From Candidatus Eiseniibacteriota bacterium (GTDB lineage Bacteria > Eisenbacteria > RBG-16-71-46), in assembly GCA_963717505.1 (NCBI GenBank), contig OY970342.1, forward strand, positions 2,016,001-2,080,000: 64,000 nt of DNA, given 5' to 3'. Position numbers and translations under genes: made by a program. Each line of letters starts with the position of its first letter. Position 1 is the first letter of the stretch. This document shows positions 36,554-54,327 of this stretch, piece by piece. Below the pieces are notes generated by a model. That model made no database searches and was not told the DNA's origin. It saw nothing but the letters and a program-made list of their open reading frames with translations.

Positions 36554-38128
36554 ATGACCGAAGAGCCCCGCCGGCGCGTCTTGTGGGCCGACGACGAGAT
36601 CGACCTCCTCAAACCCCACATCCGCTTCCTCGAACAGAAGGGTTTCGCCGTCACCCCGGTGCCCAACGGCGAGGACGCGCTCGAAGAGCTGGGACGCGGC
36701 CGGTTCGATGTCGTCCTGCTCGACGAGATGATGCCCGGACTCGGCGGACTCGGCACGCTCGACCAGATCAAGGCCCGCGACCTCGGCGTGCCGGTGATCC
36801 TGGTCACCAAGAGCGAGGAAGAGAGCCTGATGAACGAGGCGATCGGCCGCCACATCACCGACTACCTGATCAAGCCGGTGAACCCGTCGCAGGTGTTCCT
36901 CGCGTGCAAGCGCGTGTTCGAGGCGCAGAAGATCCAGGACACGCAACTCGCGCGCGACTACGTCGCCGAGATGCAGCGCTGGCAGTCGCTCGACCTGCGC
37001 GGGCTCGACTGGCGTGGCTGGATCGACCTCGCGGTCGAGGCCGCGCGCTGGGACGTGCGTTTCGATCACGCGCCGGAATCCGGCCTGCGCCAGTCGCACA
37101 TCGACTTCCGCCGCGGCGTCAACGTCGAATTCGCGCGCTTCGTCGAGGAGGGCTACCCGGGATGGGTGCGCATCGCCGAGGGCCGCCCGATGCTGTCGAT
37201 CGACGTCATCGAGCGCGGGGTCGTGCCCCACCTGCGCGCGGGCAAGCGAGTGATGTTCGTCATCATCGACTGCATGCGGCTCGACCAGTGGTTCGCGCTC
37301 GAGGGCCTGCTCGAGGACCTGTTCGACATCCGCCGCGACTACTACTACTCGGCGCTGCCGACCGCGACGCCTTACTCGCGCAACGCGATCTTCTCCGGGC
37401 TGCTGCCGGCCGACCTGTGGCGCAAGCACCGCGAATACTGGCAGGAAAACGACCCGGAGGAGCGGACGCGCAACAAGTACGAGCGCGAGTTGCTCGAGCT
37501 CCAGCTCGCGCGCCTCAATGCGACTCCCGAGCGCGGGCTCAAGTACTTCAAGATCTACGACCAGGAGGAGACGCTCCAGGTCCGCCGCCAGCTGCACTCG
37601 CTGTCCGGGCTATCGCTGGTCAGCCTGGTGGTCAACTTCCTCGACATCGTCGCGCACGGCCGCTCCGAGAGCGAGTTGCTGCAGGAACTGGCGCCCGACG
37701 AAGCCGCGTTCCGCTCGATGATGACCGCGTGGTTCACGCACAGTCCGCTCTACGACATCTTCCGTGAGCTGTCGCGGCAGCCCGACTGCGTCACCGTGCT
37801 GACCACCGATCACGGTGCGGTGCTCGCCCGGCGCGCCGCGATGGTCCACGGCAACCGCGACACGTCGACCAACCTGCGCTACAAGTACGGCCTCAACCTC
37901 AATGCCGACGCCAAGCAGGCGGTGATCGTGCGCAAACCGATGGAGTTCATGCTGCCCGACGACGGCATCAACAAGAACTACCTGCTGGCGCGCGAGGACT
38001 TCTATTTCGTCTATCCGACGCGATTCCACGAGTACGAGCGCCAGTACCGCGGCACGCTGCAGCACGGCGGCATCTCGGTCGAGGAGATGATCCTGCCGCT
38101 GATCACCCTCACGCCGCGCCGCGGGTGA
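36554..38128 (+). CDS. porX: PorX-like response regulator (receiver + PglZ alkaline-phosphatase domain)
   Basis: LWADDEIDLLKPH, LLDEMMPG, TKSEEE, YLIKPVNP, IDCMRLDQW, LPTATPYSRNAIF, TTDHG, QHGGIS.EEM. Confidence 0.9.
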   Translation: MTEEPRRRVLWADDEIDLLKPHIRFLEQKGFAVTPVPNGEDALEELGRGRFDVVLLDEMMPGLGGLGTLDQIKARDLGVPVILVTKSEEESLMNEAIGRHITDYLIKPVNPSQVFLACKRVFEAQKIQDTQLARDYVAEMQRWQSLDLRGLDWRGWIDLAVEAARWDVRFDHAPESGLRQSHIDFRRGVNVEFARFVEEGYPGWVRIAEGRPMLSIDVIERGVVPHLRAGKRVMFVIIDCMRLDQWFALEGLLEDLFDIRRDYYYSALPTATPYSRNAIFSGLLPADLWRKHREYWQENDPEERTRNKYERELLELQLARLNATPERGLKYFKIYDQEETLQVRRQLHSLSGLSLVSLVVNFLDIVAHGRSESELLQELAPDEAAFRSMMTAWFTHSPLYDIFRELSRQPDCVTVLTTDHGAVLARRAAMVHGNRDTSTNLRYKYGLNLNADAKQAVIVRKPMEFMLPDDGINKNYLLAREDFYFVYPTRFHEYERQYRGTLQHGGISVEEMILPLITLTPRRG

Positions 38129-48222: not shown

Positions 48223-48252
48223 TTGACCCTGGTCGCGGGCGGTCCGTAAAAT
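48223..48252 (+). promoter_or_regulatory. Sigma70-like promoter for the selenoprotein gene
   Basis: TTGACC-N18-TAAAAT; AGGAG SD before ATG 48298. Confidence 0.65.
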
Positions 48253-48297
48253 CCCACCGCGCAACACGTCCCACCGAACCCCAGGAGTTTTCCGTCC

Positions 48298-49701
48298 ATG
48301 AAGCACCTCGCCACGCGATTGTTTGCCTTCGTGATTGTGGCGCTCATTGGAGCGCTCGTGTTGTCGGCTGCCGGTCCCTCGACGGTCCTGCAACCGGACA
48401 AGCTCATCATCCTCTCGACGACGGACGTAAAGGGGAAGACGAGCCCCTGCGGTTGACACACCCCCAAGGGGGGTCTGGCCCGGCGGGCCAGCTACGTCGA
48501 CAGCACGAAGGCGCAATACGGTCAGGTCCTGTTGGTCGACAACGGCGGATTCTTCCCCGAGTCGGCGAACTCGCACGATGTCGCGTGGTTCCTGATGGAC
48601 GCGATGAAGCTGCTCGGGACCGACGCGGTGGGCGTCGGGGACCGCGATCTGCGCTACGGGGTCGCTTATCTGCAGTCGCAGCAGAAGCGCACCGGCCTGC
48701 CGCTGGTCTCCTCGAACCTGCTCGACGCCAAGACCAAGAAGCCGCTCTTCCAGCCCTACCTGATCAAGACAGTGGGCAAGGTCAAGGTCGGAGTTCTCAG
48801 CCTGATCAGCGACAAGGTGGATCTCGGCCCGGCCCGCGATTCGTTGTCGATCACCGAGCCGGCGGTCACCGCCGAGAAGACGATCGCCGAGATGAAGAAG
48901 AAGGGCGCGCAGGTGATCGTGCTCCTGTCGCAGCTCGGCAAGGTCGAGACCGAAGACCTGGTGACCGCGGTCGCCGGGATGGACGTCGCGATCGTCGGCC
49001 GCAACGTGCCGCTGCTCCAGCAGGGCCGCGTGATCAAGAACACGATCGCGTGCTACGGCGGCGAGCAGGGTCAGTATCTCGGACGCACGGTGATCACGCT
49101 CGACAAGGGCGTGGTGACCAAGCGCGAGAACGACATGTCGATCCTGAGCCCGGTGGTCGGCGAGAAGCCCGAGATCCTCGAGCTGGTCAAGAGCTTCGAG
49201 GATTCGTACAACGAGAAGCTGCGCAAGCAGGAAACGGCGGCTGCGACGACGCGTCAGGAAAAGCAGGAGGATCAGCCGGATCGCTTCCTGGGATCCGAGG
49301 TCTGCATCCGCTGCCACACGGCCGAGGGTGAGCAATGGAAGACCACCTCGCACTCGGTGGCCTGGCAGACGCTGATCGACGCCAAGAAGGACGCGACCCC
49401 GGACTGCATCGGCTGTCACGTGGTCGGGTTCCGCAAGCCGACCGGGTTCACCAACCTGACCTCGTCGCCGCACCTGTCGAACGTTCAGTGCGAGAACTGC
49501 CACGGCATCGGCACCCGGCACGAAGCGTTCGCGGCGGCGCCGCATCGGGTCGCCGAGGCGGTCTGCACCCAGTGCCATCAGGGCGAGAACGACCCCGAGT
49601 GGAACTGGGAGAAGAAGCTGCCGATGATCGCCCACCACAACTTCTCGGGCGAGACCGTCAAGAACAAGAAGAACAAGATGAGCGGCGGCAAAGCGCACTG
49701 A
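48298..49701 (+). CDS. Probable selenoprotein: secreted UshA/5'-nucleotidase-like domain with CxU motif fused to a tetraheme c-type cytochrome (467 aa, Sec53)
   Basis: MKHLATRLFAFVIVALIGALVLSAAG..LIILSTTDVKGKTSPCG-TGA(48454-48456)-HTPKGGLARRASY..LLVDNGG is in frame with ORF 48532-49701; hemes CIRCH, CIGCH, CENCH, CTQCH. Confidence 0.85.
48472..48493 (+). promoter_or_regulatory. Putative bacterial SECIS element
   Basis: CTGGCCC-GGC-GGGCCAG 7-bp stem (48475-48491); G-initiated loop 25 nt after the UGA. Confidence 0.7.
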
Positions 49702-49729: not shown

Positions 49730-49762
49730 ACGCGGCGTTCCCTCACGGGACGCCGCGTTTTC
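49730..49762 (+). terminator. Rho-independent terminator
   Basis: ACGCGGCGTTCC-CTCAC-GGGACGCCGCGT followed by T residues. Confidence 0.75.
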
Positions 49763-49775
49763 GTTGCGGTGGTGC

Positions 49776-52995: not shown

Positions 52996-54327
52996 ATGAT
53001 TCAGACCCCCGTCGGCGCTCGCCCCATCGTGAGGCGGGCCCTGTTTGCGACGGCAATCGTTCTTCTCGCGGCCTGGGCGGCAACCATCCTGGGCAGTATG
53101 CCCTGGCAGTCAGGGCTCGCGCGCGGGCCGCTCGCCGCCGTGGTTCACGCGGTCGCGTGCAACGTCGCGACCGCTGTAGCTCAGGAATCCAGTCAGCCGC
53201 CGGAGCCCCCGGTGCCGCCTGAGCCACCCGAGCATCCCAAGATCACGATCGGCAAGTCCGGAAACATCACCCGCATCGGCTCGGACATCGAGATCGGTCC
53301 CGACCAGGTGGTCGAGGGCGACGTGGTCGCGGTCGGCGGTGACGTCACGGTCTATGGCCGAATCGAGGGCGACGTGGCTGCGATGGGCGGCGACGTGCAC
53401 TTGATGGCGAGCGCCGATATCGAAGGCGACGTGGTCTGCATGGGCGGTCGCCTGATCGAGGAAGACGGCGCCAAGGTCGGCGGCCAGCGTGTGAGTGGTC
53501 TGGGTCGCGGCCGCAGAGGTACCGTCATCCGCGAGGGGTGGAAGGAAGAACACCGCCGCGAGAACCGACTGGCCTCGTCGCTCGCCGGCCTGCTCTTGAT
53601 GGCCGGCGCTGCCTGGGGCTTCGCGAGTCTCGGCCCGGGCCGGACGCGCGAGGTGATGACCACACTCCGCCGTGAGACCGTGATGTCGTTCGGCATCGGC
53701 ACCCTGGTCGTCGCCCTGCTCATCCCGTCGATCGTGGCGCTCGCCCTGGTGGTGGCACTCCTATGCATCACCATCATCGGGATCCCGGTGGCACTCGCCG
53801 CGCTGCTTGGCTACTGCCTGTTCCTCGTGCTGATCTGGGTCTGGGGCTACGTCGCGGCCGCCGCCGTGCTCGGCGAAGGTATCCTGTCCCGGCGTGCAGC
53901 GAGTGCCGCTCCCGGGGCCACGTTCACGCCGCCGACCCTGGTGAACGCCGCGTTGCTCGGCGTCCTGGTGGTCAATGGCAGCTCGTTCCTCGGCGCCCTG
54001 CTCAGGGAAACCGGTGGATTCCTCTCCGGGTTCGGCACGTTGATTCGCGTGCTCGCGGTGATTGCGGCGTTCCTGCTCACGATCGCCGGATCGGGCGCCT
54101 GGCTGCGGACCGAGTTCCGCGCCGGGACGATCGCGCGCTGGTGGCGTGGAAACCAATGGGGACGTAGAAGCGATCCCGTGCCGCCACCCACACCGCCGCC
54201 GGCACCGTCGTCGCCACCGGTGGCGCCGCCGCCGATGCCGTCTCCGACCTCGGCTTTCATGCCTCCCGGGATATCGCCGGGATCGGGGCACGGGGGATCC
54301 GAGCCGCCGTCGATACCGACCGGCTGA
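52996..54327 (+). CDS. Bactofilin-like beta-helix + multi-TM membrane protein
   Basis: AAGGAGG SD; repeats VEGDVVAVGGDV, IEGDVAAMGGDV, IEGDVVCMGG; ITIIGIP TM region; Pro-rich tail. Confidence 0.78.
   Translation: MIQTPVGARPIVRRALFATAIVLLAAWAATILGSMPWQSGLARGPLAAVVHAVACNVATAVAQESSQPPEPPVPPEPPEHPKITIGKSGNITRIGSDIEIGPDQVVEGDVVAVGGDVTVYGRIEGDVAAMGGDVHLMASADIEGDVVCMGGRLIEEDGAKVGGQRVSGLGRGRRGTVIREGWKEEHRRENRLASSLAGLLLMAGAAWGFASLGPGRTREVMTTLRRETVMSFGIGTLVVALLIPSIVALALVVALLCITIIGIPVALAALLGYCLFLVLIWVWGYVAAAAVLGEGILSRRAASAAPGATFTPPTLVNAALLGVLVVNGSSFLGALLRETGGFLSGFGTLIRVLAVIAAFLLTIAGSGAWLRTEFRAGTIARWWRGNQWGRRSDPVPPPTPPPAPSSPPVAPPPMPSPTSAFMPPGISPGSGHGGSEPPSIPTG

Follow-up and report, generated by a model that had tools for sequence, protein, structure and literature searches.

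A split cytochrome gene of Candidatus Eiseniibacteriota very probably encodes an exported UshA-like selenoprotein with four heme-binding motifs

Does the in-frame TGA at position 48454 close a short reading frame in front of a cytochrome gene, or is it a selenocysteine (Sec) codon within one larger gene? The question is raised by positions 48298 to 49701 of a 64,000-nucleotide stretch of Candidatus Eiseniibacteriota bacterium DNA (assembly GCA_963717505.1, contig OY970342.1, positions 2,016,001 to 2,080,000 of the forward strand; hereafter the window, the numbering of which is used throughout). Translation of the window gave one plus-strand frame running from an ATG at 48298 through the TGA at 48454-48456 to a terminal TGA at 49699-49701, with no other in-frame stop between 48298 and 49701 and with a TAA at 48247 as the closest in-frame stop 5' of the ATG. 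A mechanical open reading frame (ORF) list splits this frame into 48298..48456 (52 amino acids) and 48532..49701 (389 amino acids from a TTG start), and the gene-caller product in the genome's annotation is a 389-residue protein, P0003, called a cytochrome and without a signal peptide. The original prediction held that the gene begun at 48532 in the ORF track extends back, in the same frame, through one TGA lying in S-P-C-G-[TGA]-H-T-P-K-G-G-L-A-R-R to an ATG, and translation bore out the start, the frame and the context alike. The proportion of G or C at third codon positions (GC3) was 0.81 for codons 1-52, 0.88 for the 25 codons after the TGA and 0.92 for the rest, from the TTG on, and by this measure all three parts of the frame look coding-like. 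The 389-residue product is a truncation of a 467-residue protein. We hold with high confidence that the gene encodes an exported 467-residue selenoprotein of the NCBIfam family NF041198, in which the UGA at codon 53 is read as Sec with the help of an RNA hairpin and for which we infer a redox mechanism.

Decoding of the in-frame TGA

The elements that bear on decoding are as follows.

48298..49701, plus strand: complete coding sequence of 467 residues, with Sec at position 53 and TGA as stop (translation; NF041198 match)
48448..48456, plus strand: Cys51-Gly52-Sec53 motif, with TGA 48454-48456 as the Sec codon (translation; among related genes, Cys at -2 in 102/102 and TGA in 64/102)
48460..48474, plus strand: putative small hairpin ACCCCC-AAG-GGGGGT, following the TGA and proximal to the main one (in many, not all, relatives; two registers)
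48475..48491, plus strand: selenocysteine insertion sequence (SECIS)-type hairpin with 7 bp and a GGC loop, 18 nt downstream of the TGA (covariation among relatives)

The host genome, a single contig of 4.16 Mb, contains the complete set of Sec genes named in the original prediction. Profile search of the genome identified selA (489 bits), selB (345.5 bits, or 367.8 with neighbouring stretches) and selD (346.7 bits, with one in-frame TGA within it), and a tRNA-SeC with anticodon tca was found outside the window, a tRNA scan of the 64-kb window having found none. The selD gene lies at G000:C1:3020964-3021887 and the tRNA-SeC at 3022056-3022153, about 170 nt downstream of it; the host SelD is probably also a selenoprotein.

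A protein homolog search returned 867 matches, and from the best 120 of these all 33 with a length of at least 441 amino acids were aligned, the other 87 (369-430 amino acids) being excluded as N-terminally short. Cys was aligned to the TGA column in 33/33 of these full-length homologs, with a second Cys two residues upstream, again in 33/33. At the DNA level, 255 relatives were confirmed in a scan that took one genome for each species, and the best 80 loci were kept; by their record titles most are metagenome-assembled genomes of Candidatus Eisenbacteria. These 80 loci hold 102 family genes, in which the Sec position is TGA in 64, TGC in 29 and TGT in 9, and the Cys at -2 is present in all 102. 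At least one TGA form occurs in 64 of the 80 loci, and both a TGA form and a Cys paralog, often in tandem, occur in 19. The search does not inflate the proportion of TGA forms, because one of the two search patterns could find Cys forms only. The expectation that homologs would carry Cys-Gly-Cys or Cys-Gly-Sec here thus agrees with both sets of relatives.

In many relatives the TGA form stands side by side with one or two Cys-form paralogs, the studied window having the TGA form only. The Cys copy lies about 1.52-1.53 kb downstream of the TGA form in L040, L042, L043, L048, L080 and L087, about 1.62-1.63 kb from it in L054, L060 and L063, and 4.2-4.8 kb from it in L052, L053, L055, L064, L068, L075 and L076. 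Such paralogs may differ in substrate or be a selenium-independent backup.

The same TGA was present in a contig of an independent public DNA run (X3, record 14, covering 48378-48565), which differs from the window by one letter, at 48429. None of the public runs contained at least half of the sampled words (best 0.30), and the four that were examined gave short, low-depth contigs only. An RNA-library contig of a relative (X8, record 21) covers both the TGA and the hairpin, although RNA libraries can contain DNA.

The original prediction had also placed a SECIS-like hairpin after the TGA, and a 17-nt element, CUGGCCC-GGC-GGGCCAG, was found there. Support for it comes from comparison with relatives, not from single-sequence folding. 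Across 58 of the 59 distinct TGA forms (L086, with a one-base deletion in this region, was excluded), the pair cells of the hairpin were standard in 406/406, a value reached by 0/500 shuffles, whilst controls slid along the alignment gave 15-52%. The third pair (24-36) is C-G in 35 TGA forms and G-C in 23, with zero mismatches, and the swap arises through synonymous codons, Leu CTG/CTC together with Ala GCC/GCG. Among the 54 TGA forms with the peptide LARRA the Leu and Ala codons were (CTC,GCG) in 32 and (CTG,GCC) in 22, with no other combinations, and Arg-Arg was written CGGCGG in 54/54. The 11 Cys forms with the same peptide, in contrast, showed all four Leu/Ala combinations, with CGGCGG in 1/11 and all 7 pairs in 0/11. 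When the same columns were scored in 37 of the 38 distinct Cys forms (the frameshifted L042 copy was excluded), 58.3% of cells were paired, which is under the shuffled mean, and Cys forms show no RNA structure at the hairpin columns. The structure is kept only where the codon is TGA, and this matches the prediction for a bacterial SECIS element. Taken together, the decoding machinery, the Cys of homologs, the recurrence of the TGA and the TGA-specific hairpin agree on a Sec codon. TGA 48454 very probably encodes selenocysteine, and the gene is almost certainly a real selenoprotein of the UshA-like (seleno)protein family.

The two excluded copies each have a one-base frameshift just after the G-G codons, at L086:6163-6222 (TGA form) and L042:7606-7665 (Cys form). 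The hairpin letters of L086 are preserved, one base out of register, and both frameshifts are probably assembly errors or recent lesions.

A degenerate nucleotidase domain joined to a tetraheme cytochrome

The protein read through the TGA consists of the following parts.

48394..49167, plus strand: 5'-nucleotidase-type (metallophosphoesterase-fold) domain with degenerate ligands, residues about 33-290 (PDB profile search, AF2 model, Foldseek)
49168..49266, plus strand: long linker helix, residues 291-323 (DSSP on the AF2 model), the region where NF041198 positions 278-353 are unmatched
49270..49698, plus strand: cytochrome c554-like tetraheme domain, residues 325-467 (PF13435, alignment to c554 1bvb, NF041198)
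49303-49317, 49405-49419, 49489-49503 and 49564-49578, plus strand: CxxCH sites (translation)

A profile made from a 34-sequence alignment and compared with the PDB matched 5'-nucleotidases, with the Thermus 5'-nucleotidase 2z1a at E 1.1e-22, and the best Foldseek matches of the AF2 model were also 5'-nucleotidases (E about 1e-20). The mean predicted local distance difference test score (pLDDT) of this model is 78.6 and that of the N-domain is mostly >90. In the alignment to 2z1a the motifs NDTHAH, DAGD, GNHEF, LSHLG and GGHSH of the Thermus enzyme face tDvkgk, dnGg, GdrdL, lsqLg and vGrnv in the gene product, such that five ligand positions are substituted (H to K, D to G, N-H to D-R, H to Q and H-x-H to R-x-V). 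This agrees with the degenerate metallophosphoesterase ligands proposed for the protein at the outset. The remaining motif-I Asp is not conserved in distant relatives. The same alignment places the C-G-U loop between motif I and a GG[LV]ARR segment. UshA, CD73, Thermus 2z1a and SoxB share the N-terminal fold and the GG[LV]ARR segment after motif I with the gene product, which differs from them in the loss of the dimetal ligands and in having a cytochrome domain in place of the C-terminal substrate-binding domain (PF02872). Pfam searched at E up to 1 gave neither Metallophos (PF00149) nor 5_nucleotid_C (PF02872), and the curated cut-offs for UshA (53.6 versus 600 bits) and SoxB (TIGR04486; 78.1 versus 550 bits) were far missed.

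The only Pfam family seen in the protein was PF13435 (Cytochrome_C554), at 58.5 bits against a gathering cut-off of 20.8. The four CxxCH motifs of the original prediction were confirmed, beginning at residues 336, 370, 398 and 423. The C-terminal domain aligns to hemes I-III of Nitrosomonas c554 (1bvb; E 1.1e-13), and a W-x-x-T-x-H segment of c554 (1bvb/1ft5) aligns as well, whereas the fourth heme region of c554 aligns poorly with the gene product and c554 itself is a stand-alone electron carrier with no Cys/Sec domain. The PDB profile, Foldseek, PF13435 and c554 results together uphold the claim of a pseudo-nucleotidase fused to a tetraheme cytochrome c.

A full-library search with a natural Cys-form homolog, P0004 (80% identical), as query gave 661 cluster representatives at E ≤1e-30. 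Among the 150 matches listed, 44 seemingly full-length relatives (431-476 amino acids, with the match starting near the N-terminus; 27-56% identity to P0004) were taken, and the other 106, comprising fragments, N-terminally short forms and long multidomain forms, were excluded. All 44 have four CxxCH motifs, and 43 have the C-x-C loop, with C51 and C53 each present in 43/44. Three His residues outside the CxxCH motifs are conserved, namely H353 (44/44), H409 (43/44) and H447 (38/44) in the numbering of P0004, which is one higher than that of the gene; the corresponding residues of the gene product are H352, H408 and H446. Many cluster representatives begin directly after the loop motif, at query residues 58-61; gene callers would be expected to truncate TGA forms in this way.

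Two subgroups of these relatives depart from the common pattern. In P0174, P0205, P0224, P0229 and P0257 (5/44) the counterpart of H446 is replaced by a Cys within a C-P-G/S motif, a sequence feature that hints at a His/Cys-ligated heme IV. A further 13 representatives of 308-345 amino acids (P0127, P0128, P0130, P0131, P0133, P0134, P0137, P0138, P0140, P0143, P0147, P0152 and P0156) have a C-G-C loop (C-D-C in one) without any CxxCH motif and may be stand-alone N-domains or genes cut at contig ends.

The family to which the protein belongs is already curated. NCBIfam NF041198 ('UshA_like_PCGU, UshA-like (seleno)protein') matched at 283.2 bits against a curated cut-off of 275. On the genome itself, profile positions 13-277 (the N-terminal part with the TGA) and 354-518 (the heme part, 123.4 bits) were matched in one frame, summing to 276 bits, and the P-C-G-U motif expected after motif I is present as S-P-C-G-U-H. 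Like other members, the gene product combines this motif and a UshA-type N-domain with a C-terminal four-heme region in a family that has both Sec and Cys forms; unlike the profile, it is shorter, with linker positions 278-353 unmatched. A seed-like relative of 522 amino acids, P0225, has a C-S-C loop, four CxxCH motifs and the longer linker, and matches positions 19-518 in one stretch at 371.9 bits; several other relatives score just under the cut-off. Since NF041198 spans both parts, the curated family already includes the cytochrome. Of 201 genomes sampled in the window's phylum, 185 gave a family match at E ≤1e-30 (184/200 when G015, an unpublished genome counted along with the window's own, is omitted); for the high-quality ones the figure is 110 of 121. 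The gene is near-universal in the sampled genomes of this phylum, and most of the N-terminal NF041198 matches listed there carry one in-frame TGA. Elsewhere in the host genome, a 1193-residue frame at G000:C1:479096-481552 is weakly matched at two separate places (80 and 40.7 bits) by the N-terminal part of NF041198, corresponding to two UshA-type domains, and may be a true nucleotidase or another variant.

The protein is therefore not a new kind but a new member of a catalogued family, and the finding is an annotation repair. The original prediction called the selenoprotein hidden, which holds for ORF callers but neither for the literature nor for the NCBI family library, and its statement that CxU UshA-like selenoproteins had been described before is correct. 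A 'COG0737, UshA-like, CxU' selenoprotein with 76 Sec and 92 Cys sequences appears in the 2008 listing for the selenoproteome from Global Ocean Sampling (GOS) (PMC2398784), and two reviews list a 'UshA-like protein, NF041198, CxU' (PMC13188914, PMC9312934). Our literature search found nothing linking Eisenbacteria with selenocysteine and nothing combining nucleotidase, multiheme and selenocysteine. The product at this locus should be given as an exported selenoprotein of 467 residues in place of a 389-residue cytochrome that has no signal peptide. Most relatives need the same correction, given a TGA form in 64/80 loci, in a large family that is widespread in the phylum.

Possible chemistry of the Cys-Gly-Sec loop and competing explanations

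Four hemes need four distal ligands and three conserved His are available, H352, H408 and H446, so that one heme would be without a conserved distal His; on the alignment to c554, the heme II of which is five-coordinate, heme II would be the odd one out. In the mechanism proposed here, the four hemes would pass electrons in the periplasm to or from the Cys-Gly-Sec loop, which would take over from the lost dimetal site as catalytic centre. Heme II (C370-C373-H374) would be open or ligated by Cys51, Sec53 would act as the nucleophile, and sulfur or selenium compounds could be the substrate, for example polysulfide, thiosulfate, tetrathionate or selenite. Redox catalysis at the C-G-U loop, wired to the hemes, seems to us rather probable, though well short of assured. 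A chalcogen (sulfur or selenium) substrate is a more tentative suggestion that could easily prove wrong.

A site of the proposed kind would be a convergent counterpart of the His/Cys-heme and Sec site of MccSep. In the preprint that describes it (bioRxiv 10.1101/2025.11.18.688581), MccSep of Geobacter is an ExtKL-type pentaheme c-type selenoprotein that reduces polysulfide and selenite; Cys239 is a ligand of heme 2, the Sec325 that attacks polysulfide or selenite comes from a non-heme domain, and the authors relate this site to the His/Cys hemes of TsdA and SoxAX. As described there, MccSep resembles the present proposal in being a periplasmic multiheme c-type protein with a Sec from a non-heme domain near a conserved Cys and with one heme lacking a distal His. 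MccSep, however, has five hemes, a C-terminal Ig-like domain and a Cys239 and Sec325 far apart in sequence, according to the same source, whereas in the gene product studied here the hemes number four, the nucleotidase fold is N-terminal and the C-G-U is vicinal, and Cys ligation of a heme is a proposal. The MccSep/ExtKL family NF040886 was absent from the 20 NCBIfam matches obtained at E up to 1. The gene is thus not a member of the MccSep family; unrelated in sequence and architecture, it could by analogy have reached the same solution.

MccSep-like ligation of a heme by Cys, as this analogy would have it, is on present evidence unlikely. The wider conjecture, that the UshA-like PCGU family might form a second, independently evolved class of heme-selenocysteine enzymes in which Cys51 ligates heme II and Sec53 attacks S-S or Se-O bonds, is put forward as a doubtful one. 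If it were true, a near-universal gene of the phylum would encode an oxidoreductase for polysulfide, thiosulfate or selenite in the periplasm, with a dead nucleotidase as its scaffold. Selenium-heme catalysis would then have a second protein scaffold, and a capacity for sulfur or selenium redox chemistry would have gone unrecognised in a widespread, uncultured soil and sediment phylum. Taken with the MccSep precedent, the ligand count leads to a concrete question, namely whether the Cys-Gly-Sec loop sits on a heme and whether polysulfide, thiosulfate or selenite is turned over. To the catalogued family the present analysis adds a control of the SECIS hairpin against Cys paralogs, the near-universality in the phylum and the argument of three His for four hemes that links the family to MccSep-type chemistry.

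Several observations weigh against the account given so far. Single-sequence folding of 48445-48520 gave a z of -1.56, with 15/200 shuffles folding as well, and was not counted as evidence for the hairpin; an Rfam scan of 48250-48650 gave chance-level matches to unrelated families and none at the hairpin. The NF041198 score is barely above the cut-off with profile positions 278-353 unmatched, as they also are in the 150 listed matches from the same phylum. In the AF2 model the mean pLDDT falls to about 53 over residues 51-60, with residues 54-56 <50, and is mostly 50-70 in the heme domain. The gene neighbourhood holds no sulfur-respiration partner, and the metal-efflux flanks found in part of the relatives would also fit a metal role. 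The literature search, in which the GOS supplements lay outside the material covered, found in print no experiment on any family member and nothing on the function of the family or the role of its heme domain.

Four other explanations were weighed, two of which concern whether the gene and its active site are what they appear to be. Were the TGA a genuine stop codon, a lesion in a pseudogene or a mistake of the assembly, the products would be a 52-residue peptide and a TTG-started cytochrome. Translation table 11 does read TGA as stop, gene callers gave the 389-residue P0003, and the gene's own terminator codon is also TGA, but the same TGA recurs in 64 of the 102 family genes of the 80 loci and in the contig of the independent run, the peptide is conserved and coding-like on either side of it, Cys replaces it in 38 genes and the hairpin is specific to TGA forms. 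Attachment of c-type heme during cytochrome c maturation requires a signal peptide, which the 389-residue product would be without. This reading is strongly disfavoured and very improbable. A working phosphoesterase or nucleotidase, that is a UshA- or SoxB-like hydrolase merely carrying a cytochrome tail, would account for the clear homology to 5'-nucleotidases (2z1a at 1.1e-22; Foldseek E about 1e-20) and for a weak SoxB match of 78 bits. Given that this match lies far below the cut-off of 550, that five ligand positions are replaced with the motif-I Asp varying in distant relatives, and that Pfam Metallophos and 5_nucleotid_C are unmatched, such a hydrolase is scarcely credible.

The other two explanations accept the Sec residue and assign the loop a different task. 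It might bind Cu(I), Hg, As or Te, with the hemes reducing or oxidising the bound metal or metalloid, and so take part in the metal homeostasis of the envelope. Cys/Sec pairs bind soft metals well, and across the 80 loci and the window a P-type ATPase with a heavy-metal-associated (HMA) domain is encoded upstream in 27, a cupredoxin-like protein in 11 and a resistance-nodulation-division (RND) pump in 6. These metal genes are, however, separated from the target by a divergently transcribed zincin-like gene and are absent beside the gene in the studied window, which has LptD upstream; as the loci all belong to a single phylum, a shared order may be inherited rather than functional, and no metal-binding family of Pfam or NCBIfam matched the protein. 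Metal handling is accordingly quite unlikely as the function, although the gene neighbourhood, itself weak evidence, leaves it alive. Alternatively, the C-x-U or C-x-C loop might swap disulfides with envelope proteins in the manner of a CXC motif resembling protein disulfide isomerase, with the hemes recycling it. CXC peptides act as mimics of disulfide isomerase, the loop has a vicinal C-x-C/U motif, the protein looks periplasmic from a signal-peptide-like N-terminus seen by inspection, and LptD, a disulfide-dependent outer-membrane protein, is encoded nearby in the window. Yet the N-domain adopts the 5'-nucleotidase fold, the pocket of which suits small ligands, and has no thioredoxin fold; the link to LptD amounts to a gene order conserved within a single phylum, and a P-type ATPase gene separates LptD from the target in L054, L057, L060 and L079. 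A role as a protein thiol-disulfide oxidoreductase is improbable, and heme-wired redox catalysis at the Cys-Gly-Sec loop is the reading that we prefer.

Flanking signals and neighbouring genes

The start and end of the gene are marked by the following candidate signals.

48223..48252, plus strand: sigma-70-like promoter candidate TTGACC-18-TAAAAT (consensus match only, 10/12 positions)
48283..48287, plus strand: Shine-Dalgarno sequence AGGAG, 10 nt 5' of the ATG (inspection)
48298..48372, plus strand: signal-peptide-like N-terminus, residues 1-25, with a K/R n-region, a hydrophobic core and LSAA|GP (inspection)
49730..49766, plus strand: terminator-like hairpin ACGCGGCGT...ACGCCGCGT followed by TTTTCGTT (inspection)

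The ribosome-binding site, promoter and signal peptide claimed for the upstream ATG were thus all located, the promoter as a consensus match and the other two by inspection. A single sigma-70-like site is present, compared with 0.0 +/- 0.2 in 50 shuffles, and residues 2-23 of the signal-peptide-like N-terminus are helical in the AF2 model. The terminator-like hairpin is absent from the motif-scan list, since it does not fit the loop and stem rules of the scan.

Upstream of the gene lie a 1503-residue LptD-type gene and a divergent gene with zincin-like and TPR features, and downstream of it a CBS-domain pyridoxal phosphate (PLP) enzyme and a PLP enzyme of Cys/Met metabolism. This order is conserved to varying degrees in the 80 related loci and the window, with the zincin-like gene in 53 loci, the CBS gene in 44 and the Cys/Met enzyme in 27. 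The HMA-domain ATPase, cupredoxin-like and RND genes counted above lie farther upstream in relatives, as in L029, L031, L033, L035, L037-L039, L041, L044 and others. Context was treated as weak evidence because all loci belong to one phylum and because the target has its own promoter-like site and terminator-like hairpin. The LptD, zincin-like, CBS and Cys/Met-PLP neighbours give no convincing functional link and were not used for the mechanism. Two further genes of the window were noted. A coding-like ORF of 443 amino acids at 52996-54324 (plus strand) has no Pfam match and has relatives downstream of the target in 26 loci (cluster c7), and at 36554-38125 (plus strand) a response-regulator receiver domain is fused to a PglZ domain, in a protein unrelated to the selenoprotein.

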